A DNA stretch of 36,610 nt from a virus: IMG/VR virus record IMGVR_UViG_3300008213_000001; one strand, 5' to 3'. This document shows positions 1-36,610 of the stretch, one piece after another. A model generated the notes under the pieces. The model was not told where the DNA came from, searched no databases, and saw only the letters and a program-made list of their open reading frames with translations. Within the stretch, counting starts at the first letter, position 1. The number at the start of each line of letters is the position of its first letter. A program made the translations under genes and the position numbers.

Positions 1-123
1 TACTTCGGGTCAAAATGGAGTTAAAGAGTGGCACCTACCCTAAAGAGGTCTTGGAAGCTAAGAATGAAGTATGGAAAGGATGATGACGGTTTATAAAATT
101 ACAGATGATTTAACTAAGTTTCA
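1..123. repeat. Terminal direct repeat, left copy (identical to 36488-36610)
   Basis: Base-by-base comparison of the first and last 123 nt shows identity. The repeat lies across the 3' end of the AHH nuclease gene and the 5' end of the next gene, as expected for a circular or terminally redundant assembly rather than a biological repeat. Confidence 0.95.
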
Positions 124-658
124 GTCGGTATGTTCTGGCCCAGATGAAATCGCTACCCAGTTGGGGGATTTCGACTATTTTGAGAGAATCTTATTGCAGG
201 CTGTTGAAAATAAATCTCTGAAAGATATTTGGAAGCCTGCGGAGGTCGAATTTGAAGATGTATTAACCGATAACTCCGTATTGCCTGATATTAGCTTATG
301 GTTACGAACATATCTTGTTTTATCGCCGAGGGCATATGAAGCTTTAAATAGTTGCTTATCTGAAAGCGGGGATTTTTTACCTGTCAATTATCAAAGTGAA
401 CAATGGTATTTATATACATCGCTGACTTTTGGAAAAGAAGATAGACAAAAGTGTGTAGAGAAGATCTCATATGGAAGCCCTGATGGGTTAGAGGTTCTTG
501 CATTCATTGATGATGATGTGAAAGATAAAGTGATCTTTAAATCAAGATTAGAAGGGACCAGCAACTTATACTGTACAGAGAGGTTCAAGGCTATGTGTGA
601 ACAAAATCAGCTTAATGGGCTCGTATTCTCTTCTAATCTGACAGATCCATTTGATTGA
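71..658 (+). CDS. Putative immunity protein for the upstream AHH nuclease (195 aa; alternative start ATG 80)
   Basis: Long ORF directly after the nuclease gene. In-frame ATG at 80 overlaps the nuclease stop TGA 81-83 (ATGA coupling) and a GGAAAGGA RBS-like run lies upstream. No catalytic motifs. Size and position are typical of polymorphic-toxin immunity genes. Confidence 0.6.
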   Translation: MERMMTVYKITDDLTKFQSVCSGPDEIATQLGDFDYFERILLQAVENKSLKDIWKPAEVEFEDVLTDNSVLPDISLWLRTYLVLSPRAYEALNSCLSESGDFLPVNYQSEQWYLYTSLTFGKEDRQKCVEKISYGSPDGLEVLAFIDDDVKDKVIFKSRLEGTSNLYCTERFKAMCEQNQLNGLVFSSNLTDPFD

Positions 659-7500: not shown

Positions 7501-7510
7501 GGAGTAATGC

Positions 7511-9889: not shown

Positions 9890-9892
9890 CCA

Positions 9893-11023: not shown

Positions 11024-11026
11024 TCC

Positions 11027-11476: not shown

Positions 11477-11485
11477 CAAGGAGGC

Positions 11486-12428: not shown

Positions 12429-12430
12429 CG

Positions 12431-13160: not shown

Positions 13161-13183
13161 TCCACCGGTAATAGGACGCATCA

Positions 13184-15019: not shown

Positions 15020-15360
15020 TGGCGGATTACAAATACCAGGACATTTTGATTGAGAACGGGGATGTGGTGCTCGATGCCGGCCGCAACCCAATCTTGATTC
15101 AAGACCGTGCAGTGATCGCCCAAGACATCAAACACGCCATCATCGAGAGCAACTTAGCGGTGGATTTAATCGCTGAGCGAAGCCCGTCAAAGAAAGCCGA
15201 TATCCGCACCAAGCTGGAATTGCTGGTTGAAGAAGACATTCGATTGGTACCAGGTACCGTGCGTTTGGATGAACAGACCGAGGGCACGATTTATGTCTTT
15301 GCCGACACCATGGACTTTGGCGAGTTGCAATTAGAAATAGTGAATAACGGAGAGCGTTAA
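15019..15360 (+). CDS. Small baseplate protein (gpW/gp25-like or DUF2590-like, 113 aa), putative
   Basis: Size and position immediately before the baseplate J-like gene. ATG overlaps the tape measure stop. Confidence 0.45.
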   Translation: MADYKYQDILIENGDVVLDAGRNPILIQDRAVIAQDIKHAIIESNLAVDLIAERSPSKKADIRTKLELLVEEDIRLVPGTVRLDEQTEGTIYVFADTMDFGELQLEIVNNGER

Positions 15361-16547
15361 TGGCTGATATTCCAAAACCAGATTATTCGGAACTGGTGAA
15401 GCAATCTGGCATTCCAACTGATAAAGACGGCTGGAAGAAAGTGCTCAAGGAAGAAATGAACAAAGAAGAATGCATCATTTCCAACGACTCGCCGTTTTCT
15501 CCTTTCTGGCGTCTCATCGAGTCAACAGTGGTTAGTGTGACTCTGTGGCTAATTAACACTCTGTTGGTTGGCTATGTTCTACCAAACATGTTTGTTGCAA
15601 CGGCGATTGACCAATGGCTCGACCTGTTGGCATGGCAGTGCAAACTCACTCGAAAAGGCGCGACAAAAGCCAAAGGTATGATCGCGTTTCAGCGTTCTGC
15701 ACCGAAAGGTCCTGCTCTGGTTATCCCTAAAGATACGTGGATTCAGACCGAACCAATTAACGGCACTATCTACCGTGTGAAAGTGCTTGCTGATACCACG
15801 ATGCCAGAAAACGAAACCATGGTGATGGCAGAGGTGGAAGCCGAAAACGAAGGCGCAGGCTACAACCTAGGCGAAGGTTACTACCACATTTTGCCAACGG
15901 CGATACCGGGCATTGGTGCGGTGACCAACCCTGCAGAATGGTTGAACGAGGCGGGTTCAGATAAAGAAAGCAATGATGAACTGCGTTTACGTGTTCGCAA
16001 CCAATGGAGCGCGGTTGCCCGATGGCATATTGATGCGGCTTACCGTTCGCTACTTACCAGTCGCGCAGGCATCAACGACGACAACGTGTATTTTGAGCAT
16101 AACGCCCCGCGTGGTCCAGGTACCGCCAACGCGTTAATTCTTCTCGATACGGGTGAGCCTTCATCCGACATGCTTGCTGATTTGAATGAGTACATTCGCA
16201 TTGAAGGGCAACACGGTCACGGTGATGATCTGCAAGTTTTAGCGATGCCAGAAACCACTCACGATATTACCTGCCGAGTTTGGCCGCAGCGTTCTTTGAC
16301 GATGGAAGACCGAGAAGCGTTACGAGTGAAGGTGGAGCAATTCATCGGAGCAGCATTCCGACAAAACACTGACTACTCGCCAACAGTGACCAATCCAGTG
16401 CTTCGATTCAGTTTCTCTCGCTTAGGACAAGAACTACACGCCCAGTTCTCAGAGATTGAATCATTAGAATTTGATAACGCTGACATCATCAACAATCTGA
16501 CCGTGCCGCGCATTAATACGTTGGAGGTGTCGATTGAACATTCCTGA
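15360..16547 (+). CDS. Baseplate J-like protein (395 aa)
   Basis: DQWLDLLAWQCKLTRKGATKAKGMIAFQR resembles the conserved baseplate J block. Synteny with I-like and fibre genes. Confidence 0.75.
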   Translation: MADIPKPDYSELVKQSGIPTDKDGWKKVLKEEMNKEECIISNDSPFSPFWRLIESTVVSVTLWLINTLLVGYVLPNMFVATAIDQWLDLLAWQCKLTRKGATKAKGMIAFQRSAPKGPALVIPKDTWIQTEPINGTIYRVKVLADTTMPENETMVMAEVEAENEGAGYNLGEGYYHILPTAIPGIGAVTNPAEWLNEAGSDKESNDELRLRVRNQWSAVARWHIDAAYRSLLTSRAGINDDNVYFEHNAPRGPGTANALILLDTGEPSSDMLADLNEYIRIEGQHGHGDDLQVLAMPETTHDITCRVWPQRSLTMEDREALRVKVEQFIGAAFRQNTDYSPTVTNPVLRFSFSRLGQELHAQFSEIESLEFDNADIINNLTVPRINTLEVSIEHS

Positions 16548-17136
16548 GATAAAGCTGCGTTACTGGATGGGTAGAGGCGAGCTGGCAAAGTTCGCCCGAG
16601 CCATGCGCAACTATTGGGGGCATGTAAAGGCGGCATTCGAAATGCCATTGCAACAGCATGACCCACTCACTGCACCAATGGCACTAGTGAATATCCTTGC
16701 TTGGCAACGTGAGATTGAACGACTAGGGCAAGAGCCGGAAGAGTTATTTCGAATTCGTGTGGCGCATGCCTACGGCTTTGCACGTGATGCGGGTTCGATT
16801 GCAGGTTGGGAAGATATGTTCGCCAAGTTGGGCTATCCGCATATCGGACAAGATGAACGTTTAACCAATGTGGATTGGGATGTAATCAGCTTAAAAATCC
16901 GCGATGGCGATTTAACCAACGTTCCTAAGCTGCTAGATACAGTAATCAGACAGTACGGCAGAACCTGCCGTCGTTACCAATACACCAGTTATGTAGAAAT
17001 GCCTTTGGCAGCGCGAAGCAAGAATATAGAAGCGCAGTATTTAATATCACACATCAAAACTCGACTAAACGTTGGCATGCTTCCAAATGTGCTCAACGTT
17101 GATTGCGAATATTACCAAGCCACAGTGAAAGGGTAA
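16534..17136 (+). CDS. Tail protein I-like baseplate component (200 aa, TTG start)
   Basis: TTG 16534 lies 4 nt after GGAGGTG. LVNILAWQREIERLGQEPEELFRIRVAHAYGFARDAGSIAGWEDMF resembles the gpI conserved region. Confidence 0.65.
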   Translation: MNIPEIKLRYWMGRGELAKFARAMRNYWGHVKAAFEMPLQQHDPLTAPMALVNILAWQREIERLGQEPEELFRIRVAHAYGFARDAGSIAGWEDMFAKLGYPHIGQDERLTNVDWDVISLKIRDGDLTNVPKLLDTVIRQYGRTCRRYQYTSYVEMPLAARSKNIEAQYLISHIKTRLNVGMLPNVLNVDCEYYQATVKG

Positions 17137-17147
17137 GGAATTTTAAA

Positions 17148-20066
17148 ATGGCAAACAGCACCGATAAGTCAATTTTAACCGCCGCAGGTAAGGCTCTGTT
17201 GGCACAGCTCAACGCAGAAGAAAAAGCACTTGTTATCGACAAGATGATTTTCGCCAATGTGCCAAATCGTCCAGAGTACCCACAACCAGATGATGTGGTG
17301 CCAACTGACCATATCGTTCACCAAGAACAAGTAGAGCAGCGCGGTCGCCTTTCTGCAGACTCGGTAATTTACAGCACCACGTTGACCAGTGATGTTGGTC
17401 CGTTCGAGTTTAACTGGACAGGTGCATACTGCTCAGAATATGGCGTATTGGTGACGGTTGACCATCACGCGCTTACACCTAAAACAGCCGATGAACCAGG
17501 TGTCGCAGGTAATACACTCGTACGCTCGGTTGTTCTCGAATACAAGGACATTGCCGAGATCACCAATATCACTGTTGATGCTTCAAGTTGGCAGTACAAC
17601 GCCACAGAACGTATGAAGAAGATGGATAGCGATGTGGCGCAATCCATCATCGACCAGAATGGTAAAGACTGGTTTATCGAAGACGGTTTCTTAGTAACGC
17701 CATCGGGCAGTGCATACAACATTAAAGCGGGGGCGGGTTATGTTTCAGGTAACCGTGTCGCTATGGAATTTGACCGAAGCGTTCAGGTACCAAACAAGCC
17801 ATCGTTTATCTACATCGACGCGCACCGTGAAGGCACACCAACAGCTGAGCAAGTGACCATATTCAACTTTGTGGTGACTGCAGAAGAAAAAGACGACTAC
17901 ATCGACTCTTCAACGGGTAAGGATGTGAAGCACTTCGTTTGTAAGATTGCGCAGGTGCTAGAAGATGGTTCGGTCAGTGATTTGAGACCCGAACCTGAGT
18001 TTAAACAATTAGCCAGGTCGCTAAGCGGGAATAAGTATTTTTACACGCAGAAAGGCAAGGCGTTTGACTCTAGTGAGTTGGTGGGGGACCCTTTTGCATC
18101 TTGGACACACGCTACTGTATCGTATGATGAGGAAACCGATGATTTCGTCATCGTATATAACACGAATACTGGACATAATATCAATACAAACTCGGTTTTG
18201 TTTCGTACAAAACCACAGTCTTCCGATGCATTTTCGTACCCGCAAGTAATCGCGTCTGATAAGGGGAATTATTCATACAAATGTCAGGCTTCAGGTATAG
18301 CGCTGAACGGTGATTATGTTGCTTTAATTGCTCGTCTTCCATGGGGAGGGGGTCAATCAGATGCGACCTATGTATACCGTAGTAAAGACAAAGGAGCAAC
18401 GTGGCAAAGAAGCTTGATGCAAAGTAAGGGAGAGACAATTGTCGCCTTCAATGGGGATGTTTCAGGGTTCCTAGTAACGCTAAGCGGAAGAATTCTAACG
18501 TTTGCCGTTGAGAGTGACAGTTACAAGTCAAGAATTTTCTATTCCGATGATAATGGAGAGAGTTGGGAACAATCATTTATCAATGGCTCACCTACTGACG
18601 TCACGGAGCCTGCTTGGTGTGATATCGGTGGAGGCCGATTATTATGCATTGCCCGTGCTGCAGTGCGAATGGGCACGACAGAAGAGGTTATTCCTGCAAA
18701 GTTTATGACGTCCAATGATAATGGCAGCACTTGGACGGAACCCAAAGACAGTAAATCAATTCGCAACTTTACGTTGTCAAATGGTGAAATGGTTCCAGAT
18801 TATGCATCTAAGACTGTGGAATTTATACATCACTCTAGATTCACTGAGGCTGATGGTTCATCAAGTATCCTGATTAGTCGGGCAGAGTTTGACAAAGCTT
18901 TTCTAGATCAGTTTTCTCAGCAAGTGCGAGTGGCAAAATTAGCAGCTTATATTCCGCTTGACGAATCAACAGGTGACAGTGGATATATTGGTGCCAAAAG
19001 AGCTAAAAATGGCGTCATCAACGCATTCTATTATACAGGCAAGCGAACAAGCGCGCAGATTAACTACCTAGTTGGCACCCCTGACTCTAGTGAAAGTGCG
19101 AATGACGCACTTATCGACTGGCGAACAGGTGAAAAAGTTACTCAAGGGAGTAATGAGAGCAAGGCAATTGATTTTACGCCAATCTATGAGAACGGTCAGT
19201 TTAATCCAAAATACCCATTTGCGTTAAAACGTGCATTTGCCCAGGGGAAAAGTCGATTTTCTTTTGCGTCAATTATTATGGAACTGGCGGGTTCACAAAA
19301 CCAAGTTCGAGAGAGTATTTCCACTGTGCGGAAAGTTGATTTCAGCAACGTTGAGTATGTCCAGTTGATGGTTGATTCATTCACAGGTGACGGTGACATT
19401 GGTGTCGCACTGTATAACACCCAAACGATAGATCACGACAACCCTGCAGAGGGAAGAATGTTTTTTTCTGCTACTTCTAATCACGGCAAGTTCATTGCAG
19501 ATACACGAGGGATAAATGGTGTGTACTATTTACACGTCGTGTTAACAGGACAAAGTGTATCTCGTGCGACGGTCTCCCAAATTGCTCTGAACTATAAGGG
19601 AGCAAATAGCGCAATCTATCAGCAAACATTTAATCGAGTTGCTTTCAAGAACGGTTATGGTTTTGCGGGAAGGGATGAGATTGTAGCAGGAGGTGATTTT
19701 GGGCAAGGGAGTGGTGACACCAATATTACCGGCTTTATTGAGCTTGGAGCTACAAGCTCGGTCGATGGCGTGAGAACGAGAACGTTGTGTTTTAATAATG
19801 AGGTTCCAGAAGGGGTAAGTTTAGTATCAGCAGATCTATCGTTCTTAAGAGATGAGGTTGGCTTTGATGCGGGTATTGCTTTGTATGAGACAAAGACTCC
19901 TATCGATCCAAAAGACGGAAGGTTGGATTACATCTTCGTAAATAACAATGGAACGGTTGTCCTAGATGTGCCGTCACAGAGGCCACTGTATTTGCATATC
20001 GTGGCAAATGCTTCAGGGCAATGGACGTCCAATATTGTTTATGTAGATAACGTCGTATATATGTGA
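17148..20066 (+). CDS. Tail fibre with gpH-like N-terminus, central BNR/Asp-box propeller-like region and duplicated C-terminal modules (972 aa)
   Basis: N-terminus ILTAAGKALLAQLNAEEKALVIDKMIFANVP...FEFNWTGAYCSEYGVLVTVDHH parallels the P2 gpH N-terminal region. Asp boxes are SKDKGATW (18381-18404), SDDNGESW (18543-18566) and SNDNGSTW (18711-18734). Confidence 0.85.
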   Translation: MANSTDKSILTAAGKALLAQLNAEEKALVIDKMIFANVPNRPEYPQPDDVVPTDHIVHQEQVEQRGRLSADSVIYSTTLTSDVGPFEFNWTGAYCSEYGVLVTVDHHALTPKTADEPGVAGNTLVRSVVLEYKDIAEITNITVDASSWQYNATERMKKMDSDVAQSIIDQNGKDWFIEDGFLVTPSGSAYNIKAGAGYVSGNRVAMEFDRSVQVPNKPSFIYIDAHREGTPTAEQVTIFNFVVTAEEKDDYIDSSTGKDVKHFVCKIAQVLEDGSVSDLRPEPEFKQLARSLSGNKYFYTQKGKAFDSSELVGDPFASWTHATVSYDEETDDFVIVYNTNTGHNINTNSVLFRTKPQSSDAFSYPQVIASDKGNYSYKCQASGIALNGDYVALIARLPWGGGQSDATYVYRSKDKGATWQRSLMQSKGETIVAFNGDVSGFLVTLSGRILTFAVESDSYKSRIFYSDDNGESWEQSFINGSPTDVTEPAWCDIGGGRLLCIARAAVRMGTTEEVIPAKFMTSNDNGSTWTEPKDSKSIRNFTLSNGEMVPDYASKTVEFIHHSRFTEADGSSSILISRAEFDKAFLDQFSQQVRVAKLAAYIPLDESTGDSGYIGAKRAKNGVINAFYYTGKRTSAQINYLVGTPDSSESANDALIDWRTGEKVTQGSNESKAIDFTPIYENGQFNPKYPFALKRAFAQGKSRFSFASIIMELAGSQNQVRESISTVRKVDFSNVEYVQLMVDSFTGDGDIGVALYNTQTIDHDNPAEGRMFFSATSNHGKFIADTRGINGVYYLHVVLTGQSVSRATVSQIALNYKGANSAIYQQTFNRVAFKNGYGFAGRDEIVAGGDFGQGSGDTNITGFIELGATSSVDGVRTRTLCFNNEVPEGVSLVSADLSFLRDEVGFDAGIALYETKTPIDPKDGRLDYIFVNNNGTVVLDVPSQRPLYLHIVANASGQWTSNIVYVDNVVYM

Positions 20067-23287: not shown

Positions 23288-24952
23288 TTAATGCGCCATT
23301 AACGCATTTAGTTCGTCTTTATACGCTGCGATTGGTGTATATAGGTTGTGAAAGGCTCGTCCAATAGCTCCATTAAACAGAACCATTTCCGGTTGTTTGT
23401 GTTTTAAACCCGATGTCAGTATGTGATCAAAAGATATTCCAGGATATGGATCAATATAGAAAATCTTGGTCATACCTAGCTGATAAGCTTTTTTTGCACA
23501 TAATTCACAAGGACTCGCTGTCGTGAATAGAAAGCCACCCTCTACTCCACTCCCACCATCTTTTGATATCTGTAAGAAAGCATTTTCTTCGGCATGTAGT
23601 GATCTAGTATGAACTTGGTTTTTGTCTTGTTTGATTGCATTGTATTCTGATTTAAAACAATACGATAAGTTATAGCCTTTTTTCTTAATAGGCTTTAAAG
23701 CTTCAAATTTAGCTATCATATGCTCTTGAAACTCACTGTCAGTAAGTTCGAAAGGGCTATAAGCTTGTTCGTCGCGCTTCTTATTTAAGTCTTGAGTCGA
23801 ACGCAGGTTACATGGAACTTGACCAAAAGGAGCATCATTCCAACCAACAGATTTGATAGAAAAATTATTTTGTGTGACAACAGCACCTACTTGACGTGAT
23901 AGGCACCCGGAGTTTAATTTAGACGTATATGCTACTTGCATACATCGTTCTTCAGCGCTAGGAGTTATCAACCCGGGCTTTTGAGCTAGGGAAACTAATT
24001 TTATTATTTGGCTGGTGAGGAGTTGATGTGATGAATAGCTATCAGCCTTGGCATTACTATCCATATAAACGTCAGCTTTTTGGAGGCATCCTTGAATATC
24101 TTGATCGGTAAAGCTTTTTTCATCGTCAAAGTCTAATCTGGCATACTCGACTTTATCTATAGTGTCTATACTTTCGTCAGACAATCCTTTGGCTCGCAAG
24201 CGCTCCTTTCGAGTATCTTCGTTACAAGATATTGCTAACAAATAAAATGAAGCAAAACGCTCTTGAAAATAACTGGCCTCAAGTGGATTCCTAATAGCAT
24301 CAATAGCAATATATGTGTTTTGTTTCAAATCTTTACATTGTTGATGGATTTGCTTACAAGCTTTTTTAATTCGGTCTGCAATAGAAAAAAACTTTCCATC
24401 GACCATAGTAGAGTTGGACACATTTCCAGATCTACGGGCATTCTTCCCCATGAGTTGGTATAGCTTGATAAATATGGCTTCACCAAGTTCTTTACGTATT
24501 TTGGCTGTTGTTTCGTCTAAAAAGTCGACATAGAAATTTCGCTTATCTTGCTGTTTTATTCTTTCAGCTAGTTCCTTTTGGTAGGTGAGAAATAAACAGA
24601 TGTCTTTGTCTCGTATTGCTTCTTGATTTTTAAGAAAGCGCTCCAGCTGTTCAGGAGTGAGTGAATCTAATAGCATTAGCGTTAGAATTGAGCTAACACG
24701 CAGGTGTATAAAAGGTTGCCAATTTTTTTTATAGAATTTGTTTAGAATTTTTTCTTTTCGTTGCTTATTATTATCTGGAGTGTTGCCAGTGAAAAAACTA
24801 TGGCTTAAAGCACTTTTCTCTGTTGCTAATATTTTTGCTGCTGTTGTACTTCCACTTCCTGTTCTACCAGTCAGGCCTATAATGATAAAATCTTCGTTCT
24901 TACTGTAGAGTTTTTCCAATGCAGAGGATAAGTATTCGTTTTTATTACTCAT
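23288..24952 (-). CDS. P-loop nucleotide-kinase-like domain fused to a dCMP/dCTP (cytidine) deaminase domain: AvcD/DCD-type anti-phage deaminase (554 aa)
   Basis: Walker A GLTGRTGSGSTTAAKIL at the N-terminus. Zinc-dependent deaminase signature HAEENAF ... PCELCAKK at the C-terminus. Architecture and size match the dCTP-depleting defence deaminases. Confidence 0.85.
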   Translation of the reverse strand: MSNKNEYLSSALEKLYSKNEDFIIIGLTGRTGSGSTTAAKILATEKSALSHSFFTGNTPDNNKQRKEKILNKFYKKNWQPFIHLRVSSILTLMLLDSLTPEQLERFLKNQEAIRDKDICLFLTYQKELAERIKQQDKRNFYVDFLDETTAKIRKELGEAIFIKLYQLMGKNARRSGNVSNSTMVDGKFFSIADRIKKACKQIHQQCKDLKQNTYIAIDAIRNPLEASYFQERFASFYLLAISCNEDTRKERLRAKGLSDESIDTIDKVEYARLDFDDEKSFTDQDIQGCLQKADVYMDSNAKADSYSSHQLLTSQIIKLVSLAQKPGLITPSAEERCMQVAYTSKLNSGCLSRQVGAVVTQNNFSIKSVGWNDAPFGQVPCNLRSTQDLNKKRDEQAYSPFELTDSEFQEHMIAKFEALKPIKKKGYNLSYCFKSEYNAIKQDKNQVHTRSLHAEENAFLQISKDGGSGVEGGFLFTTASPCELCAKKAYQLGMTKIFYIDPYPGISFDHILTSGLKHKQPEMVLFNGAIGRAFHNLYTPIAAYKDELNALMAH

Positions 24953-25099: not shown

Positions 25100-26122
25100 T
25101 TATATATTGAATGAATTCAATGGATTAAACCTCACCGCATCACTCAAATGGTTTGGTGAAAAGTGGGCGTAAATCATCGTGTGATCGATATGCTGATGCC
25201 CGAGGATTTCCTTCAATACAAGAATGTTGCCGCCGTTGGTCATGAAGTGGCTTGCGAAAGTATGACGTAAAACGTGAGTCGCTTGTCCCTCTGGTAAATG
25301 GGGGAGAGCTTTAGTCAACCATTTATACGCTACGCCGTAACCGCAGGTGAAAAGGCGGTCATTGGTTGGTTTATAGATTTGGTTATACAACTCTTCAGAA
25401 ATCGGTACCGTTCTATTGCGTTTGCCTTTGGTGTTGCTGTAAGTGATACGGTATTTCGTCAGGTTGGAACCCTTCAGGTAAATCGCTTCCCTGATACGCG
25501 CACCAGTCGCCAGGCAAACCTTATATATCTTCGTAAGCTCATCACCAATTGGGCTTTGTTGAGCAACTTCAAACAAATGACTAATTTCTTGTTCGGTCAA
25601 GAACGCCAGCTCAGACTCTGGTTTTTTAATTGCCTCAATACCGCCAACAGGATTCGGTAGCTTCCACTCACCAAGCTTTATTAACTTGTTGAACATCGCT
25701 TTTAGCAAACCAAAGTCCACATTATTCGAAGCGATGGAAAGCTCTTTATGCTCCTGTCCTCTGCCTTTATTGGAACGACTAGAGCGATACATGGCGAGCT
25801 GCTTTGCGTTAAGCTGTGAAGCTATCGGGTTACCTAAGTCGAAAACCATGCTTTCTAAGCGCAGGCGAGTATGATAACCGGACTTGAGATTCTTACCATG
25901 CAGCTTAAACCATAGTTCGACTAAATCAGATAATCGACGGTGATCAGGTTTAGAACCTAACCACGGTTTATCATCCACCTCTTTCATCAAGTGGAGTTCA
26001 AAAGCCGTAGCTTCGCCTTTGGTTGCAAAGCGCTTACGAACGCGTTTACCAGTTCGGCCTTGCGGATAGCACTCACAAAGCCAAGTTTTTTTACTGCCGT
26101 CTTTGAGGTTTCGAATTGTCAT
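25100..26122 (-). CDS. int: Tyrosine integrase (340 aa from ATG 26122)
   Basis: N-terminal arm-binding-type domain MTIRNLKDGSKKTWLCECYPQGRTGKRVRKRFATKGEA. Catalytic pattern ATGARIREA ... HVLRHTFASH ... LGHQHIDHTMIYAH (R, H-x-x-R, H, Y). Confidence 0.92.
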   Translation of the reverse strand: MTIRNLKDGSKKTWLCECYPQGRTGKRVRKRFATKGEATAFELHLMKEVDDKPWLGSKPDHRRLSDLVELWFKLHGKNLKSGYHTRLRLESMVFDLGNPIASQLNAKQLAMYRSSRSNKGRGQEHKELSIASNNVDFGLLKAMFNKLIKLGEWKLPNPVGGIEAIKKPESELAFLTEQEISHLFEVAQQSPIGDELTKIYKVCLATGARIREAIYLKGSNLTKYRITYSNTKGKRNRTVPISEELYNQIYKPTNDRLFTCGYGVAYKWLTKALPHLPEGQATHVLRHTFASHFMTNGGNILVLKEILGHQHIDHTMIYAHFSPNHLSDAVRFNPLNSFNI

Positions 26123-26136
26123 AATGAGATAAATGT

Positions 26137-26156
26137 AACTGTTTTTATATACAGTA
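26137..26156. promoter_or_regulatory. LexA (SOS) box AACTGTTTTTATATACAGTA
   Basis: CTGT-N8-ACAG with 17/20 matches to TACTGTATATATATACAGTA. Lies 15-34 nt upstream of the int ATG, and 153 nt upstream of the divergent orf at 26309. Confidence 0.7.
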
Positions 26157-26308
26157 TTTCTGTGTGGTAGTTTTTGCAATGTTTAAGTTGAGAATGAACG
26201 AACAAGAATGAGTATGCTCTATGTCGCAAAGAGAATACTACGGTTTGACCGATACACAAATTGCTGGTAAGTCGGGATTGGAACGGTAGTTTATGTGTTG
26301 AGGTGAGT

Positions 26309-27214: not shown

Positions 27215-27970
27215 TCAGTCTTGTATATGAACTTCTTCTTGGCATTTGTAAGCCAAATAGTCCTCAGACATCTGAGGTAAGAATCCTTTCGGCCAAGTTG
27301 TTACAAACTCGCACAGCAGCTTATACGGAGCAGGAGCGTCCATGTTAACTTTTGATACTGTTAGAACATAGTTTTTAAGGTTCGGATCTTTCATTAGAGT
27401 TCTAATGTCTGAGTTAAAGTACTTAGGGCAATAACCAACTTTAATTTGCTCTTCATCAGAAGTCGTGGCAAATACTGCATTACAGTCATGTTCATTGCAG
27501 TCTTCAAAGTGAAATCTCAGTTCATCTCCGCTATCTAACCGCGAGATTCTCTCAATGTTACTATCTGGTAAATACCTAATACCATTGATAAAAAACTTAA
27601 TTTTATAGTTTTTTGTATCCGTTAGTTGTGGTTGCGCGATGATTCGAAACTGATCTGTCTGTCGAGCTCCACCAGTAATTCCTAGTAGTTCCAACTCATC
27701 ATATGACTCGGTATCCATGCCTGACCACTCCAGAACTTTCTTAAACTCTGGTCGACTCTTAGGTAGAATTCTATTTCTAAAAAACGCAAACAACTCTCTT
27801 GAAGTGTAAATCTTCGAACGGTCTTGCATTCTAGGAAAGGGTACAAAACGTGGGTGATTTGACCCTAGAGTATAATTCAGGCGATACAGTTTTTCGGTTC
27901 TAGTCAGTTTAGCGACAGGGTGCCACATCCCGTCTTGAAGATCTTTCCAAACAACAAATACACTTTTCAT
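27215..27970 (-). CDS. HipS-like (HipA N-subdomain-like) domain fused to a HIRAN-like domain (251 aa)
   Basis: aa 1-110: VFVVWKDLQDGMWHPVAKL...YRLNY...ELFAFFRNRILPKSRPEFKKVLEWSGMD...GGARQTDQFRI resembles the HipA N-terminal/HipS region. aa 120-225: FINGIRYLPDS...LDSGDELRFHFEDCNEHDCNAVF...IKVGYCPKYFNSDIRTLM resembles HIRAN. The start lies 6 nt after the kinase stop. Confidence 0.65.
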   Translation of the reverse strand: MKSVFVVWKDLQDGMWHPVAKLTRTEKLYRLNYTLGSNHPRFVPFPRMQDRSKIYTSRELFAFFRNRILPKSRPEFKKVLEWSGMDTESYDELELLGITGGARQTDQFRIIAQPQLTDTKNYKIKFFINGIRYLPDSNIERISRLDSGDELRFHFEDCNEHDCNAVFATTSDEEQIKVGYCPKYFNSDIRTLMKDPNLKNYVLTVSKVNMDAPAPYKLLCEFVTTWPKGFLPQMSEDYLAYKCQEEVHIQD

Positions 27971-27976
27971 TATAAT

Positions 27977-28927
27977 TCAACTTTTTAGAGCTAAAGCTAG
28001 ACTTGGCTTTAGGTCGATAATTCTTTTTTTGTTACTCTCAATAATAGCAATACAAAATTGCTTTGCAGTTTCACTAATTATGGAGTGGGGTATTCGTGAT
28101 ACGATGTTATTCACTTGATCACATTCAAGTTTTTCTAATCGTTCAACCCACTCTATGGCTGCTTTGGGTGATAATTTAGCGAACTCAGTAAAAGCTTCAA
28201 TAGTTTTCAATCGCGTACCTTTCAGATAAAAATGAGACTTACTTTTTCTTACGTATTGCTCTACAGATTGGTTTGCTTGTTCTGGGTAAAGCCTTCTTTT
28301 TCTATTCTCATCAGATTCATTTCGCCCAAGGCTCGCTGCATGGTCAAAAGTCGGTGCAAGTGTCATTTTTCCTTCAGGGTTGACGGTTAAAGCCCAGTTT
28401 TCGTTGTGCCTATCTTGATTTGAAATGAGACAATCAAACATCAAATACCCGATAAATACATCTAGAGCTGATTTGATCGAAGTTGTATTCTCCCAAGTTC
28501 TAGGAGGCTTTACCACGACTTTTTCCATTACGAGGGCGACTCGAGAAACTTCTTGAGATTTTTGCCCGGTTTTCGGTTCCAGCTTTTGGCTTTGCTCTAC
28601 TCTTTCAAGTAAATGGTTGCCGAAGTACAGTTTATCCCCTTTTTCACTAAAATTGAGACTTCGCGTTCCCATTTCTCCATTATGTGATGCTAAATCATAT
28701 TGAGCATGAGGTATTCCAAGTGCTTCTGCCAACTCACAAGATATTTTTTCCGCCCAGTCTTCACCACACCTTATGACAGGAGCTCCGTTCTTATCTTCAG
28801 TATGGGTTGATTTGAATAGATATTGCTTCTTATCTGAAGGGTCTGTGTACCAGAATTTAGACTTTGTTCCCATATCTTCAAAGTCATCAAAGTTCTGATC
28901 ATGAACTTCGAAAATCGGATATTCCAA
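27977..28927 (-). CDS. HipA-family Ser/Thr kinase core without the N-terminal subdomain (HipT-like, 316 aa, TTG start)
   Basis: Catalytic loop DCLISNQDRHNENWAL (DRHNEN encoded by 28397-28414 on the minus strand) and APTFDH Mg-binding-like motif. AAGGAAG RBS lies 7 nt before TTG 28927. Confidence 0.75.
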   Translation of the reverse strand: MEYPIFEVHDQNFDDFEDMGTKSKFWYTDPSDKKQYLFKSTHTEDKNGAPVIRCGEDWAEKISCELAEALGIPHAQYDLASHNGEMGTRSLNFSEKGDKLYFGNHLLERVEQSQKLEPKTGQKSQEVSRVALVMEKVVVKPPRTWENTTSIKSALDVFIGYLMFDCLISNQDRHNENWALTVNPEGKMTLAPTFDHAASLGRNESDENRKRRLYPEQANQSVEQYVRKSKSHFYLKGTRLKTIEAFTEFAKLSPKAAIEWVERLEKLECDQVNNIVSRIPHSIISETAKQFCIAIIESNKKRIIDLKPSLALALKS

Positions 28928-29018
28928 AAGATAGCTTCCTTAAAATACGATTTATCATATGCTAAATAAGAATTACTAGCAGTTCTTTGTTAACTCACAT
29001 GTTAACTAAAGCTAACCT

Positions 29019-30182
29019 CTATTTTCCTCGTAGCCGTTCTCTAACAGTTTTTTTTTGGCCGTTTATAGACTTCGCAATTCCAACCATCTCTTTCATATCG
29101 CGTAAGAAGTCGGGTACACTTTGAGTATCTGCTTTACCATCGTGGAAAGAAAAGAAGGAGATTGCGAGATCGTTCTTTAGTCTATTTTTATCTTCTTCTG
29201 CTAAGCCTTCTAAGTAGCTCGGTAGAGAGACAATCTGTGTACCGCGCTGACGATAAATATTTTCTTTAGCCCGGTGGGCCGCAGACTCTTTTAGTAAATA
29301 AAGAGCGGGAGCTGTAAGGAGTAAAACGGACATTACGCGAAGTACAAATACCTCTGTACTAATCTCTTTCAACAGAGCAACGGTTTCAGGTGTTAGTTTT
29401 TCACCAAACCCCAAGTAGTCTTTAAACATAAAGCCGAGTAGAGCGATAGAAGTAAAAAGAAAAATTATGCCAATCGCTCTCAACCAGTTTGCGTATGTTT
29501 CTTCCTCTTTAGCTCTTTCTAAGTAGATCTCTCCTTCTTTTGCTATTCCTAGTTTACTGAAATATGCATCTATCATTTCTTGCTTTTTCGAAAAACGGTT
29601 AACCACCTCATCAATACGTTGTTGAATTGCTTCCATTTCTGCGGCGGCGTTGTCACTCAGTTGCTCTATAGCTTTGCGGCTTTCCGCACGAATATGATGC
29701 TTTGCCTTGTTTAACTCGGCTGAGTTTTTTTGCAGAATTTCATGGGCTCTATTTTGCAGATCTTCGAGAGTCTGAGCTGATATATGGGCTTCATCGCTCA
29801 GGTATTTGTCTTTTAGTTGGAATAGAGGAAGTGAAATTTGAAATAGACTTTCAAGTACACTTGAGTCATACAGAGGGAATTTTTTTGATAATTCCTTTAA
29901 AAGAGATAGTTCTTCTATATATGCTAGTAAGTATTTGACAGGGATGTTAATGTTATTACTTCTTGAATAGGTCAGAATACTTGTTAAGGAGGATTCAAAA
30001 TTATATAAGTTGCTTCGGAAGTCACTAAGTTCGTTATAAAAATCCAGATCTTCTTCACAAGAAATATCAAAGTTGGAAAGATCTTCAGACAATATTGTTC
30101 GAATCCAACCAAGGCAATTCTCAATCTTATTATTAAAGCTATCAATGTAATCTATGTAACTTGCTAAGTTTACTGTTTCCAC
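29019..30182 (-). CDS. Coiled-coil protein with two C-terminal-half TM helices (387 aa, GTG start)
   Basis: AGGAGG lies 7 nt before GTG 30182. Long helical N-terminal half. TM candidates are WLRAIGIIFLFTSIALLGFMF and VFVLRVMSVLLLTAPALYLL. No family recognised. Confidence 0.6.
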   Translation of the reverse strand: METVNLASYIDYIDSFNNKIENCLGWIRTILSEDLSNFDISCEEDLDFYNELSDFRSNLYNFESSLTSILTYSRSNNINIPVKYLLAYIEELSLLKELSKKFPLYDSSVLESLFQISLPLFQLKDKYLSDEAHISAQTLEDLQNRAHEILQKNSAELNKAKHHIRAESRKAIEQLSDNAAAEMEAIQQRIDEVVNRFSKKQEMIDAYFSKLGIAKEGEIYLERAKEEETYANWLRAIGIIFLFTSIALLGFMFKDYLGFGEKLTPETVALLKEISTEVFVLRVMSVLLLTAPALYLLKESAAHRAKENIYRQRGTQIVSLPSYLEGLAEEDKNRLKNDLAISFFSFHDGKADTQSVPDFLRDMKEMVGIAKSINGQKKTVRERLRGK

Positions 30183-30569: not shown

Positions 30570-31211
30570 TTATTCTTTTCTTAATGTCACCGCCACGCGG
30601 CCAATTACTTTTATATCTTTTTCTGAAACTTCAACGGTGCTGTCACCAAACACAACAGCCAGTTTTTTGCCTGGTAAGCGCTGGATATGGTTGATCGACA
30701 AAGTACCGTCGATATCTATTAAGTATTTGCCCGAAGCTGGGTTTGTAGAGCTTTTGTCAACGAGATATAAAGCTTCATTAGTTTCAACTTCAATCGTCGC
30801 GTCAGCTTTGAGGTTAAAGCTGTTAAACCTGCGGATAGCGTAAGGTAACTCACCAGTATCTAAAAGCTCCCCATTGGTCAGGCAATAGCTTTTGATCTGG
30901 ACTGAGTTGTGTTTAGGTGAAGTTGTAGCGCTTGCTTCTTCGGCAGTACATTTTGTCGCTGAGTGAGCCTTAAACCGGTCCTCTGGCTTTAACGCCAAAT
31001 CCACCATTGGGATTCCCAAAGCTAAATGAGCTCTTACCATGAGTTCATGGGAAGTTCGATTATGAGTATTCCAAGTGCTAAAAGTGCTTTTTGGTACGCC
31101 ATATACGAACGCCATTTCTTGAAAGTTCTTACATCCTGTCAAGTTCTTCAAATTTTCTGTGAAATCAGTGCCTTTCAAATAATCGAAAGGTTCTATTTTA
31201 CGAATGCTCAT
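30570..31211 (-). CDS. cI: Phage 186-type CI immunity repressor (213 aa)
   Basis: N-terminal HTH region NFQEMAFVYGVPKSTFSTWNTHNRTSHELMVRAHLALGIP and a C-terminal domain like the 186/K139 CI family. Divergent from the cox-like gene. Confidence 0.8.
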   Translation of the reverse strand: MSIRKIEPFDYLKGTDFTENLKNLTGCKNFQEMAFVYGVPKSTFSTWNTHNRTSHELMVRAHLALGIPMVDLALKPEDRFKAHSATKCTAEEASATTSPKHNSVQIKSYCLTNGELLDTGELPYAIRRFNSFNLKADATIEVETNEALYLVDKSSTNPASGKYLIDIDGTLSINHIQRLPGKKLAVVFGDSTVEVSEKDIKVIGRVAVTLRKE

Positions 31212-33344: not shown

Positions 33345-33580
33345 AAAATAAAAGGATCACTTCAGTTATTGTCGGTGATGATGTCATTCAAATTTTGGAA
33401 GGACGAACAAAGACATATGAAAAGTGTGCTATTGCATATTTTGCAGGGCCGGAAGGATGGGGCATAACCATGACAATTCGACTCGAAGAGGTCGAAGGTT
33501 TTCTGAAGTCTCCTGATACACAGAGACTATTTGTTAAGTTTTCGAAAGAAAAATTAGGGATAGAGTATGAACCAGTCTGA
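33341..33580 (+). CDS. Early hypothetical protein (79 aa from ATG 33341)
   Basis: GGAGG RBS. ATGA overlap with the previous stop. The ORF-track extension to 33239 is rejected. Confidence 0.5.
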   Translation: MKNKRITSVIVGDDVIQILEGRTKTYEKCAIAYFAGPEGWGITMTIRLEEVEGFLKSPDTQRLFVKFSKEKLGIEYEPV

Positions 33581-35654
33581 CCTTCTCTATATCGGCGGGG
33601 CAGTGATGCCCCTTGACCGAATCAAAAATAATGATGCCAGCTATAAAGCTGGTTTTTTAGGTTCCAAAATTTACTCAGACCAAGAACAAGCACTTCTAGA
33701 TAGTGGAATGGTCAAAAAAATAGCGATATATGACCGCGTTCCCAATCGAAAGTCTAAGCGCGAACGAGATCTTCAAGAGCGAACTGACTTCTATAAATCT
33801 GTAAATTACCTCTCGGAACACGACCGCGAAGCGGCGGCGAGAATCGCCGAAGAGTATAGGCTAGTCAAAGGGCGCAAAAGTCCGACAAAGAAATTTCGCC
33901 ACAGAAAAGACAAGCAAATTAAGCAATTGATGAGTCTGAGCAAGTCTCTACGCCCTAAAAGTATCATCAGCAATGCCGACGCCAACTTCAGCCATGATGC
34001 TTTGTATGAAACGAACGAGCGCTCCAAACCTGCCATTCTCAATCAGAATGGAAAACGAGGACAAGGCGAACCTAAAAAGATTCCTATTTCAATGCAGCTA
34101 ATGCACCGGTCTTGGAATGAAACTTATAAGTTTCAGGCGGTAACCGAAACGCCATCTAGTGCTGCGCCTTCGGAAAACAGTGGTGAGAGATTCTCGGAAA
34201 AGTTGACGTCCCGTTCTGTTTCTAAAATCTTTGAGGCAGGGGCTTACACTGCAGCTTGCCATGGTGGTTTCTCTACTTTTCTCACGCTGACTTTCACCAA
34301 GGCACAACGAATGGCCATATTCGGTGGAATGTTGGATGGAAGTGAGTGTGTCAGCATGGGGTCGCATCATCCAATAATCTATAAGCGCAACATGGTGACA
34401 GTACATCCTAAGCGTGGTGAAAAGAAAGTTGACCAACCAATCACGGATATTGGTGGAGAATACTGGCTGTTTCCAACCTTAGATAGTAAGCGTGTTAAAG
34501 CTATGAACCAGGGCAGTGTCATAGCCGGGCCGTATTGCGATCTTAAACAAAAGCCCAAGCAAGAGTTCTCGATGGAAAAAACCTTAGAGACAACGATAGG
34601 TAAAGAAGTCTCTCGTTTTCTTGATGGCGCAAAGAAAATGTATCAACGCGGCTGGGTTGCGGATCATACCATCCAAGTTGACAAAGATAGTGGACGAAAG
34701 TACTGCGACTTATCCCAGGAGAAGGTTGCTAAACATGCTCAACCCAGCGATGTTGGGCCGACTAACTTACCTGCTGATTTCCATTACATATGGGTAGCCG
34801 AGTGTCCAGCCAATGAAGATGGAGAGCCTAATCCACACGTTCATATTTTGCTACGTTGGACAGTACCAGAGCATCTCTTTAGTCCTTGGGCCAAGCGACT
34901 TGAAAAGATATGGGGGCATGGGTTTGCGAAATTAGAGCGAATCAAAAAGCCAAAAGCCGCCGGTTCTTACATTATCAAAGCAGTCGGTTATGCCGCTAAA
35001 GGTGAAAATGCTGACCAAGGGCTAATCAAGGGAAATCGATACAATATCGCGAAGTGCTCAAGAGCTCCTGCCTGGGAAACTCTTGCTTCGTTTGAAGCTG
35101 GCAATATGACCGCAATAATTAAGGAGTTAGGCTACAAACTTGAGCAATGGAAAAAGCCAATTAAGCGGCAAATCCGCAAGCTACGAAATGCCAAAGAGCA
35201 AACCATCAAGGCCAAAGCGATCGCCAAAAAGCAGCAGAAATCTGAGGAATATCAGAACAAGCTTTATCAGAGAATCATCCGTTTGGAAAAGCGGGCCGAA
35301 AAGCTGAGTCAGAACTTACATAGCAGGGGAGTGCACGTGAATACGAGCAATCGCTTCTGCATTACGTTTGAAGGAGAACTGGCTAAGGATAAAGTAGACA
35401 AGTTTATGGTTTGGGCTGCTGGTGCAAGAGGGTGGTCATTGAATTGTAGAGATCTGGACCTGAGCGATATAAAACAAGACGCGAGCCACTTCTATCAATC
35501 TGAATATCAGCGATTTAAAGAGAATCAGTCCTATTGGCAATCACTATTACATGAACCTGTACCACATATGGAAGTTGATGAAAGTGAGCTTTCTTATTGG
35601 TATAGCATTACGGCAGATTATCTCGAAGGGCGGCTTTTTCCAATATTGAGTTAG
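33567..35654 (+). CDS. Rolling-circle replication initiator (P2 gpA-like HUH endonuclease, 695 aa)
   Basis: HUH-type motif NPHVHILLRW and tyrosine motif GSYIIKAVGYAAKG. Size and position at the end of the early operon match P2 A. Confidence 0.75.
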   Translation: MNQSDLLYIGGAVMPLDRIKNNDASYKAGFLGSKIYSDQEQALLDSGMVKKIAIYDRVPNRKSKRERDLQERTDFYKSVNYLSEHDREAAARIAEEYRLVKGRKSPTKKFRHRKDKQIKQLMSLSKSLRPKSIISNADANFSHDALYETNERSKPAILNQNGKRGQGEPKKIPISMQLMHRSWNETYKFQAVTETPSSAAPSENSGERFSEKLTSRSVSKIFEAGAYTAACHGGFSTFLTLTFTKAQRMAIFGGMLDGSECVSMGSHHPIIYKRNMVTVHPKRGEKKVDQPITDIGGEYWLFPTLDSKRVKAMNQGSVIAGPYCDLKQKPKQEFSMEKTLETTIGKEVSRFLDGAKKMYQRGWVADHTIQVDKDSGRKYCDLSQEKVAKHAQPSDVGPTNLPADFHYIWVAECPANEDGEPNPHVHILLRWTVPEHLFSPWAKRLEKIWGHGFAKLERIKKPKAAGSYIIKAVGYAAKGENADQGLIKGNRYNIAKCSRAPAWETLASFEAGNMTAIIKELGYKLEQWKKPIKRQIRKLRNAKEQTIKAKAIAKKQQKSEEYQNKLYQRIIRLEKRAEKLSQNLHSRGVHVNTSNRFCITFEGELAKDKVDKFMVWAAGARGWSLNCRDLDLSDIKQDASHFYQSEYQRFKENQSYWQSLLHEPVPHMEVDESELSYWYSITADYLEGRLFPILS

Positions 35655-35838
35655 TCCGGTTTGTGTCGTCATAAGAACTTAAAGGTTAGAGTAGTGAACC
35701 GCTATTTCTTAAAGTTGATTTAAAGTGCTATTGCTTGCATAAAAATCTGAGCTGTAGGCCACATAAAGGCTATTGATTATTTGCTCGTCAGTTATGTGAA
35801 TGTTATCCAACGGCTTTGTTTGTTCGAGGGATACGAGT

Positions 35839-36570
35839 ATGAAGCATAATTTGAGTATAGTTGGACGAAAAACGAATCGTCCTAGTAATCCAACTGCAGC
35901 TGAGTTGGCCTTAGATCGTTTTGATGCGTTAGTCGACGATTTCTATAGCAAGTATCGTGTTGCCCCACCTGCGGGTGAAACTGAACAGCAAAGAGCAAAA
36001 CGATTGCAGTTTGAAGCACAAGACTTGAGGTTTTTGAAAAAAATGAGGATTGAACTCATTGCTCATGCTCGAGTTGAAGATATGCAAGCTAAGTTGCAAT
36101 CGTACTCTGCAGAAAACTTAAAAAAAAATGCGAAAGAGTTGTTCGTTGAAAAGCATCATCCGACGACGAAACTAGCTAATAACCTAACCGCTGCAGGAGA
36201 GCCTAAACCAACTAAAAACCATGAGCCTCACCATATCATTCCTGGCTCGGGAAGGTTTAGAAAAGCAGAAATGAGAGCCGCAAGATTAAATTTGCACATG
36301 CATAAAATTGGCATAAATGCGCCCGTAAATGGTGTTTGGTTAACAAATTATGCGAAGCATACGGATTTTAACTGGGAAGCACCTAAGTCTCCGGCTCACC
36401 GTTCGATCCATACATTTAATTATGAAACTTGGATTAGTTCCAAATTTTCGAAGGGTATTCCGAGTAAGCAGCACTTTGAGGCTAACTTACTTCGGGTCAA
36501 AATGGAGTTAAAGAGTGGCACCTACCCTAAAGAGGTCTTGGAAGCTAAGAATGAAGTATGGAAAGGATGA
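35839..36570 (+). CDS. Stand-alone HNH/EndoVII-superfamily AHH-type nuclease toxin (243 aa from ATG 35839)
   Basis: HEPHHIIPGSGRF...LHMHKIGINAPVNGVWL...PAHRSIHTFNY matches the xHH ... N..NG..L ... H...H pattern of the AHH nuclease family (PHH encoded at 36226-36234). GAGGGA lies 7 nt before ATG 35839. Confidence 0.7.
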   Translation: MKHNLSIVGRKTNRPSNPTAAELALDRFDALVDDFYSKYRVAPPAGETEQQRAKRLQFEAQDLRFLKKMRIELIAHARVEDMQAKLQSYSAENLKKNAKELFVEKHHPTTKLANNLTAAGEPKPTKNHEPHHIIPGSGRFRKAEMRAARLNLHMHKIGINAPVNGVWLTNYAKHTDFNWEAPKSPAHRSIHTFNYETWISSKFSKGIPSKQHFEANLLRVKMELKSGTYPKEVLEAKNEVWKG

Positions 36571-36610
36571 TGACGGTTTATAAAATTACAGATGATTTAA
36601 CTAAGTTTCA
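36488..36610. repeat. Terminal direct repeat, right copy (identical to 1-123)
   Basis: See the left copy. It contains a duplicate of the first 53 nt of the immunity-like gene (ATG at 36558). Confidence 0.95.

Follow-up and report, generated by a model that had tools for sequence, protein, structure and literature searches.

The 36,610-nucleotide virus record IMGVR_UViG_3300008213_000001, called the window below, carries a two-gene operon that is, with high confidence, a cognate pair of an AHH nuclease toxin and an Imm11-type immunity protein, borne as cargo in the replication-portal hotspot of a P2-like phage. The role that best accounts for this pair, at a probability of roughly 55%, is that of an exported interbacterial weapon with cognate protection. 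Delivery between cells is favoured by poly-immunity arrays in related loci, by genomes that hold several diverged pairs, by the decay of some toxin genes and by the position of the toxin gene ahead of its partner.

Sequence comparison identified the window as a circular contig, in which bases 1-123 are identical to 36488-36610. Because of this terminal repeat the two window ends are contiguous and the pair is split across them within the immunity gene, whose first 44 bases are repeated at the right end (36567-36610). A left-end coordinate x therefore corresponds to x+36487. The operon and its surroundings comprise the following features:

35773..35801, plus strand: promoter-like element, TTGATT, 17 nt, GTGAAT (comparative alignment)
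35839..36570, plus strand: toxin gene, 243 amino acids (aa), stand-alone AHH-family nuclease of the HNH/EndoVII fold (open reading frame, Pfam AHH)
35839..36168, plus strand: N-terminal non-catalytic region of the toxin, residues ~1-110 (long helices predicted by AlphaFold2, family conservation)
36154-36165, plus strand: invariant HHPT motif, residues 106-109, H106-H107-P108-T109 (homolog alignment)
36181..36450, plus strand: AHH nuclease domain, residues 115-204 (Pfam)
36226-36234, plus strand: catalytic-type motif P130-H131-H132 (sequence)
36567..36570, plus strand: ATGA junction, where the immunity start overlaps the toxin stop (sequence)
80..658, plus strand: immunity gene, 192 aa (195 aa from the ATG at 71), divergent Imm11 family (profile, intermediates, fold)
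36488..36610 = 1-123, no strand: terminal redundancy, a 123-bp exact direct repeat (circular or circularly permuted assembly)

The toxin and its partner

An earlier note on this DNA, made from its letters, had recognised in the first gene the signature HEPHHIIPG ... AHRSIH of an AHH nuclease toxin. Its sequence statements all hold, the 243-aa translation carrying NHEPHHIIPG, IGINAPVNGVWL and SPAHRSIHTFNYETW, and the family assignment was borne out by a profile search, in which Pfam AHH (PF14412) matched residues 115-204 at 40.1 bits against a gathering cutoff of 22.3 (expectation value, E, 3.9e-10). The same profile matches every database homolog of the toxin (27/27). The protein also matches phrog_17620 (E 4e-61) and is identical at 243/243 positions to gp31 of Vibrio phage ValB1MD-2, labelled "AHH domain-containing protein" in RefSeq. 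An alternative, longer reading frame from the ATG at 35800 would encode 256 aa; the start was placed at the ATG at 35839 because a GAGGGA Shine-Dalgarno-like sequence lies 7-8 nt 5' of it and because the database homologs are all about 240 aa long.

The Tox-AHH family is defined by an [AG]HH motif together with conserved N, H, H and Y residues (Zhang et al. 2012, PMC3482391). In the window protein PHH replaces A/G-HH, and the remaining signature positions, N160/N164, H187, H191 and Y195, are invariant in an alignment of 14 homologs that extends down to 38% identity, as are H131, H132, G165, W167, N194, E196, W198 and the HHPT motif. Of 81 relatives, 49 have AHH at this motif and 24 have PHH, as here.

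The earlier note had further described a helical N-terminus of about 125 aa with no recognisable trafficking domain, and both descriptions stand. AlphaFold2 predicts helices over ~110-125 aa (residues 20-39, 49-93, 98-102 and 108-118), and this region retains conserved residues of its own (R14, P15, E22, L66, R70, L86 and Y89), although its mean pairwise identity is lower than that of the nuclease part (31% versus 48%). No PAAR, RHS, LXG or other trafficking domain was detected in Pfam, NCBIfam or PADLOC, and the toxin has no signal peptide. The possibility that the N-terminal region is a trafficking domain shared across the polymorphic class was considered and rejected because its profile retrieves only short fragments of the same AHH toxins; the arrangement that strictly defines polymorphic toxins, a conserved N-terminal trafficking region joined to alternative C-terminal toxins, is thus not seen here. 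The region is a candidate loading/delivery or regulatory domain. The toxin model as a whole has a predicted local distance difference test score (pLDDT) of 70 and a predicted template-modelling score (pTM) of 0.48, with a poorly predicted nuclease core. It gave no fold match in the PDB at E < 1, which, given the low confidence of that core, is not evidence against an AHH nuclease, and no solved structure was matched by sequence search. Neither the toxin nor its partner matched any model in NCBIfam or PADLOC.

The overlap between the two genes was likewise confirmed on the sequence. The toxin stop codon TGA (36568-36570, equivalent to 81-83) overlaps an in-frame partner ATG at 80-82, so that the junction occupies 80-83, and the longest reading frame of the partner runs, as had been noted, from 71 to 658 and encodes 195 aa, whereas gene callers start it at 80 (192 aa). 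The ATGA overlap suggests translational coupling of the toxin and immunity genes. The two products are of opposite charge, the toxin being basic (isoelectric point, pI, 9.9) and the partner acidic (pI 4.35). The partner is identical at 189/192 positions to gp30 of ValB1MD-2, annotated "hypothetical protein", and matches phrog_17602.

The earlier note had called this second gene immunity-like and had suggested comparing its product with immunity-family profiles. That comparison succeeded only indirectly. The partner itself matches Pfam Imm11 (PF07791) at 15.4 bits, below the cutoff of 22.1, with E 0.012 over the C-terminal 50 residues, and the same match short of the threshold recurs in 11 of 13 close relatives (E 0.012-0.001). 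A profile search of 1.84 billion cluster representatives with the partner retrieved 636, nearly all of ~190 aa, and 26 of the 51 distant relatives sampled match Imm11 at E <= 1e-3 (best 1.5e-11). The third line of evidence is the predicted fold. The AlphaFold2 model of the partner (mean pLDDT 65, pTM 0.68) has a sole significant PDB match by Foldseek, to 6a4c, the structure of MXAN_0049 (E 7.9e-5, probability 1.00; template-modelling scores 0.57/0.52 over ~207 columns), the runner-up lying at E 0.69. MXAN_0049 is the Imm11 prototype and a validated inhibitor of the AHH DNase MXAN_0050 of Myxococcus xanthus (PMC12077181; PMC12077131; PMC6627406), and Imm11 is listed as an immunity family paired chiefly with Tox-AHH (Zhang et al., PMC3482391). 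A gene of this family is expected directly downstream of a Tox-AHH, HNH or SHH toxin gene, and the window partner has that position, with its ATGA overlap. Weak profile match, intermediate sequences and predicted fold, three independent lines, thus agree in pointing to an Imm11-type immunity protein, which is termed divergent because the direct Pfam threshold is not reached. Other searches were uninformative: comparison of the partner sequence with solved structures returned only chance-level matches, to botulinum neurotoxin and VapC (E > 0.06), which were discarded, and the model had no match among viral structures (BFVD) at E < 0.3. No helix-turn-helix (HTH), ribbon-helix-helix or other DNA-binding Pfam family was matched by the partner or its relatives.

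A mobile pair and its place in the phage

The pairing extends well beyond the window. A set of 98 loci, 96 of them with a toxin gene, was assembled from one genome per species and from IMG/VR scans, and Imm11-like neighbours of the toxin genes were identified by local hidden Markov model searches. An Imm11-like gene lies directly downstream of the toxin gene on the same strand in about 92 of the 96 loci, a recurrence that argues against a chance arrangement, and the loci that break the toxin-then-immunity order are contig ends or carry decayed toxins. In nearly all of 81 unique pairs the two genes overlap or abut (-26 to +19 nt, on longest reading frames), and the divergence of the toxins is correlated with that of the immunity proteins (r = 0.85, a value reached by 0 of 999 permutations). 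This correlation and the complementary charges of the two products lend indirect support to neutralisation of the toxin by its partner.

The hosts are marine Gammaproteobacteria, including Vibrio, Photobacterium, Rheinheimera, Arsukibacterium, Alkalimonas, Pseudoalteromonas, Psychromonas, Marinomonas, Microbulbifer, Thalassotalea, Marinobacter, Shewanella and Endozoicomonas, and most family members are found outside phages. The pair occurs in at least 3 prophage types, on plasmids, in elements resembling integrative and conjugative elements (ICE-like elements) and in solitary islets. Other P2-like Vibrio prophages carry it in the same slot between Rep and Ogr/portal, with toxins only 64-67% identical. 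In a V. penaeicida prophage with an SU10-type portal and capsid it lies just upstream of the antiterminator Q and lysis genes and adjoins YoeB/YefM, CcdAB and HEPN genes, whilst another prophage, of V. vulnificus, carries it at its end, after the tail-fibre genes. On 21 mobilizable plasmids of 96-184 kb from shrimp-associated V. parahaemolyticus and V. owensii the pair adjoins Rep3 and PemK/MazE; ICE-like elements with umuDC also carry it, and in V. vulnificus it forms a solitary two-gene islet between housekeeping genes. As a separate observation, the P2-like prophage of V. diabolicus that holds a 64%-identical copy of the pair (L013:838-4173, minus strand) also encodes, next to its CI repressor, a 1111-aa Roc/COR-type GTPase with Arf/Ras/Roc/COR-A/COR-B domains, an unusual cargo that is possibly defence-related.

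Judged by its P2-type portal, terminase, capsid and Ogr genes, the window itself is a P2-family (Peduoviridae) phage of Vibrio. Its replication/toxin region shares 96% identity with ValB1MD-2, a phage of V. alginolyticus (Peduoviridae, genus Valbvirus), and its structural half ~90% with vB_ValM-yong1, also of the Peduoviridae. The genome is a mosaic, as the head-tail region at 2714-17984 is ~90% identical to vB_ValM-yong1 (genus Yongunavirus) and only ~84% identical to ValB1MD-2. The genes around the pair run in the order replication initiator, toxin, partner, two opposite-strand genes (for a lipoprotein and a membrane protein), a small reading frame, Ogr/Delta, portal and large terminase, of which the slot borders and remaining cargo are as follows:

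33567..35654, plus strand: replication initiator, functional counterpart of P2 gpA, left slot border (Pfam REP_ORF2-G2P, phrog_38601)
769-1206, minus strand: predicted lipoprotein, 145 aa, slot cargo (signal peptide and LTGC lipobox)
1281-1745, minus strand: multi-pass membrane protein, 154 aa, slot cargo (translation)
2342-2602, minus strand: Ogr/Delta zinc-finger activator, right slot border (Pfam Ogr_Delta, 1.2e-16)
2672-3700, minus strand: portal gpQ homolog, right slot border (phrog_68 portal, 4e-119)

The pair therefore lies, as the earlier note had placed it, at the old/tin position of a P2-like phage, that is, in the cos-proximal gpA-gpQ interval, flanked by Rep and Ogr/portal in a phage with Peduoviridae relatives. 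In P2 this slot holds old and tin, and it is a cargo hotspot (Rousset et al. 2022, PMC9122126). Its content varies among the relatives of the window phage as expected of such a hotspot: vB_ValM-yong1 has unrelated small reading frames there and Vibrio phage 1.202.O is almost empty. The replication protein falls outside the classical P2 GPA family in Pfam; its match to REP_ORF2-G2P, the rolling-circle Rep of small phages and plasmids, is barely above threshold, and the gene at the equivalent position in vB_ValM-yong1 is annotated as GPA. The lipoprotein and the membrane protein have no family matches in Pfam or PHROG. They are shared with ValB1MD-2 (gp29 and gp28) and missing from the other carriers of the pair; they lie in the same slot as the pair and are candidates for superinfection exclusion.

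Position and context bear on two further explanations. The first holds that the toxin is a nuclease of the phage life cycle, which degrades host DNA or assists packaging in the manner of terminase-assisting HNH proteins, with the partner silencing it in the lysogen. The toxin gene does follow the replication gene directly, in the same orientation, and lies near the packaging genes. However, the related Vibrio P2-family phages vB_ValM-yong1 and 1.202.O lack the pair at this slot, only one of 50,697 isolated phage records, ValB1MD-2, contains it, most members of the family are not in phages and the partner belongs to a polymorphic-toxin immunity family. This explanation was accordingly rejected and is scarcely credible.

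The second, raised in the earlier note, is that the pair is a bacteriocin, released when the prophage lyses part of the population, with the free nuclease entering sensitive neighbouring cells and the lysogens being immune. A nuclease followed by its immunity gene resembles the layout of DNase colicins and S-pyocins, and phage lysis could release such a protein without a dedicated lysis gene. Against this, only ~110 aa lie outside the nuclease domain, which leaves no room for receptor-binding and translocation domains, and none are detectable; the toxin lacks a signal peptide and has no Pfam match to Pyocin_S, colicin or any other bacteriocin family; and the cassette is also found on plasmids, ICE-like elements and solitary islets that have no lysis function. 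A bacteriocin is consequently very improbable, if somewhat less so than a life-cycle nuclease.

Upstream of the pair, the 184-bp spacer between Rep and the toxin contains the promoter-like element listed above, and its pattern, TTGA(N2)-17 nt-nnAAnT, is kept in four P2-like carriers even though their toxins share only 64-67% identity. Strict scans found no consensus promoter or terminator in this spacer and, around the pair, gave no more sites than shuffled sequence. The conserved element is a hint that the pair may have its own promoter at 35773-35801, and hence of possible expression in the lysogen.

Two other accessory regions occur elsewhere in the window. Adjoining the integrase (25100-26179), a 554-aa protein (23288-24952, minus strand) has a P-loop kinase-like region (AAA_18) followed by a dCMP/cytidine deaminase domain, an architecture resembling that of the AvcD/DCD dCTP-deaminase anti-phage proteins, whose first description reportedly came from Vibrio cholerae. 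The phage probably carries this gene for defence; ValB1MD-2 has other genes in the matching region, an AAA ATPase and a Dam methylase. The second block (27215-30182, minus strand), between the integrase and the CI repressor (30570-31211), encodes a HIRAN-domain protein (27215-27970), a HipA-like kinase (27977-28927) and a 387-aa protein with no assigned function (29019-30182), and is possibly a kinase-type toxin or defence module.

Export or an intracellular role

The evidence that separates delivery between cells from action within the cell comes chiefly from the arrangement of immunity genes in related loci. Near pairs in relatives of the window cassette, though not in the window itself, 19 Imm11-like genes occur without a toxin of their own. 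In one locus (L110, 6258-9570) a single toxin is followed by four Imm11-like genes, that is, a pair and three extras, and a pair with one or two extra immunity genes is present in several others (L022/L034, L025/L112, L029/L102 and L048). Most of the extra copies share 25-55% identity with the cognate one, and a few reach 83-85%. A locus of Marinomonas spartinae (L029, 5477-7410 and 9944-11262) contains two diverged pairs within 6 kb and an extra immunity gene, and the poly-immunity arrays or tandem pairs of L022 and L025 lie at 9207-11968 and 9220-11903. Single genomes may also hold several diverged pairs, at no fewer than 5 loci in Pseudoalteromonas ostreae and at 3 in Marinomonas spartinae. 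Poly-immunity loci are a recognised hallmark of polymorphic-toxin conflict, noted specifically for Imm11 (PMC3482391), and the collection of divergent immunity genes would pay only if toxins arrive from other cells. In V. parahaemolyticus, toxin genes are frameshifted exactly at the AHH motif in >100 contigs.

Examination of the decayed genes themselves showed that the V. parahaemolyticus frameshift splits the toxin into an N-terminal and a nuclease piece (P0217, 116 aa; P0219, 129 aa), and that in a further decayed toxin (P0199, 177 aa) an internal deletion takes out the nuclease core.

If the pair is an exported weapon, the acidic immunity protein would very probably bind and block the basic nuclease domain in the producing cell, a step modelled on homology to the validated MXAN_0050/MXAN_0049 pair. 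The toxin would then, somewhat more probably than not, be exported to neighbouring bacteria and kill those that lack the matching immunity gene; with about the same likelihood, the lysogen would gain both weapon and shield, and the phage would gain by favouring its carriers. A more tentative proposal concerns the route, which in Vibrio would most likely be the host type VI secretion system (T6SS), with the protein travelling as an orphan cargo effector and the ~110-aa helical N-terminal region possibly acting as its loading determinant. Stand-alone AHH toxins of Myxococcus use a T6SS with a PAAR partner (PMC12077131), and in those of the MXAN_0050 type the variable N-terminal region is needed for competition, but not for DNase activity or immunity binding. 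On Vibrio pVA1 plasmids, T6SS1 dependence was shown for a small effector/immunity pair that is marker-less and overlaps by 4 bp (bioRxiv 10.1101/2024.06.03.597196), and the P2-like Burkholderia phage AB4 carries a PAAR-TseV-TsiV module (PMC13366799). Because of these three precedents, T6SS cargo delivery through the N-terminal region is the most plausible route.

Several observations weigh against an exported weapon. The role of the toxin family is read from sequences. Its N-terminal region differs from the MIX, FIX and RIX delivery domains in not being shared with other toxin domains. A search whose models did not include FIX or RIX detected no known T6SS marker in the toxin; the RIX paper lists no AHH-containing member, and RIX is limited to residues 1-55 of Vibrionaceae and Moritellaceae proteins. 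The PAAR-like and FIX domains of VP1415, the AHH effector known from Vibrio, are missing here. No PAAR or VgrG gene accompanies the cassette and no T6SS-linked gene lies in the window. A Pfam census of 280 non-redundant neighbours (three upstream and one downstream, about 80 non-P2 loci) found no VgrG, PAAR, Hcp or adaptor family at least twice, although single occurrences may be hidden. Of the usual indications of a T6SS effector, linkage to VgrG, PAAR, Hcp or an adaptor and a marker domain (PAAR, MIX, FIX or RIX), neither was seen, the latter within the models searched. Finally, the slot is the one in which P2 keeps its anti-phage genes old and tin, several copies adjoin classical toxin-antitoxin (TA) modules (PemK/MazE, YoeB/YefM and CcdAB) and some adjoin genuine defence genes.

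These last points are the natural support for an intracellular module resembling a TA system, in which an immunity-restrained nuclease would be freed on phage infection, giving abortive infection, or on loss of the element, giving post-segregational killing; the earlier note had put forward such a function. In E. coli the P2 gpA-gpQ hotspot is rich in anti-phage systems, old and tin included (PMC9122126). The plasmid copies beside Rep3 and PemK/MazE and the V. penaeicida prophage copy beside YoeB/YefM, CcdAB and HEPN genes fit this function, as do the absence of nearby secretion genes and of a trafficking domain, and the window phage carries the AvcD-like deaminase and the HipA-like kinase as further defence-like cargo. 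The families that recur in the neighbour census are phage integrases (8), UvrD helicases (4; together with AAA_15/AAA_21 ATPases), ResIII/DEAD helicases, GmrSD, ThiF with JAB and HTH regulators. Among the neighbours PADLOC identifies GajB-type helicases (four), BovA, restriction enzymes of types I and IV and a number of candidate systems. The cassette thus sits in variable regions rich in mobile elements and defence genes, but the signal is modest, with roughly 10-15 defence genes among the 280 neighbours, and orphan effector/immunity modules occupy the same kind of region. The neighbourhood, with its TA modules, some defence genes and mobile elements, is compatible with both intracellular and inter-cell action.

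Other features speak against such a module. Neither protein matches a PADLOC model, the toxin gene comes first, and the immunity protein, at 190 aa, differs from typical type II antitoxins in that neither a DNA-binding nor a degron-type feature is detectable; the antitoxin-first order, DNA-binding domain and known defence model by which type II TA or abortive-infection systems are recognised are all missing. The characterised AHH/Imm11 pairs are all inter-cell toxins, and tandem arrays of divergent immunity genes and multiple diverged pairs are hard to explain if the toxin stays inside the cell. The abortive-infection or addiction function is therefore not specifically supported, and an intracellular TA-like module is considered the less likely reading, though a serious rival. 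A related proposal, rated a little lower still, is that a cassette derived from polymorphic toxins was co-opted for intracellular conflict as a previously unrecognised abortive-infection or addiction system in the old/tin slot. The helical N-terminal domain would then be a sensor, and the AHH nuclease, held inactive by Imm11, would be set free once the complex is disturbed by phage infection or by loss of the element.

Significance and comparison with known systems

Pairs of AHH toxins and Imm11 proteins are already known, and the toxin gene was already annotated in the RefSeq phage ValB1MD-2. What is new is modest: the partner is recognised as Imm11, a widespread subfamily of stand-alone AHH toxins with its own N-terminal domain is defined, and its residence in the P2 old/tin hotspot and in other mobile elements with no linked delivery gene is described. 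Should the pair prove to be exported as a weapon, the P2 replication-portal hotspot, whose reputation rests mainly on anti-phage genes, would also be a vehicle for interbacterial toxins, and lysogeny would shift competition in aquaculture-relevant Vibrio (V. alginolyticus, V. parahaemolyticus and V. vulnificus). The family, a ~240-aa AHH toxin with an Imm11-like partner, extends over phages, plasmids and islands of dozens of marine gammaproteobacterial species. It has no known delivery determinant, which makes it a tractable case for how 'orphan' effectors are loaded. Action within the cell would instead make the pair a clear case of defence or addiction built from reused effector/immunity parts. 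Under both readings, the 'hypothetical protein' entries that lie downstream of such AHH genes, which number in the thousands, could be annotated as Imm11-type immunity proteins.

The closest characterised counterpart is MXAN_0050/MXAN_0049. The two systems share the same Pfam families (AHH and Imm11), the toxin-then-immunity order, a stand-alone toxin in which a short non-catalytic N-terminal stretch precedes the AHH domain, and a basic toxin with an acidic immunity protein, a charge pattern seen in Myxococcus pairs; the predicted fold of the window partner also matches the MXAN_0049 structure 6a4c. MXAN_0050 is a T6SS cargo delivered with a separately encoded PAAR protein, whereas no adjacent PAAR gene is present in the window or in relatives of its pair. 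In addition, the window toxin's N-terminal region is longer (~110 aa versus 40-70) and conserved across its family, the similarity of the window partner to Imm11 lies below the Pfam threshold, and the window pair is phage-borne rather than chromosomal.

Two Vibrio systems offer partial parallels. VP1415 of V. parahaemolyticus, an antibacterial T6SS1 effector of the architecture PAAR-like DUF4150 - FIX - AHH, likewise has an AHH nuclease domain and a downstream immunity gene, but it is a specialised effector encoded in the T6SS1 cluster, whereas the phage toxin lacks the PAAR-like and FIX domains and lies away from T6SS genes. The pair WP_025789713.1/WP_025789712.1 of pVA1-type plasmids is, like the window pair, a small module of two genes overlapping by 4 bp, borne on a mobile element and with no known T6SS marker, and it mediates T6SS1-dependent killing and cognate protection (bioRxiv 10.1101/2024.06.03.597196). 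Its toxin, a predicted colicin-like pore former, and its immunity protein are unrelated to those of the window, and it is experimentally tested, whereas the window pair is known from its sequence.

Among phage-borne systems, old/tin of P2 occupies the same replication-portal slot, which is variable among related phages in both cases, but the window pair has no homology to Old (an ABC ATPase with TOPRIM), to Tin or to any PADLOC model. Polymorphic toxins carried by phages include the MuF toxins, which are fused to a head-morphogenesis domain (Jamet 2017). Like these and the PAAR-TseV-TsiV module of AB4, the window pair is a toxin-immunity module of the polymorphic-toxin type carried as a moron by a temperate phage, and it differs from them in having neither a head-morphogenesis fusion nor a PAAR gene of its own.

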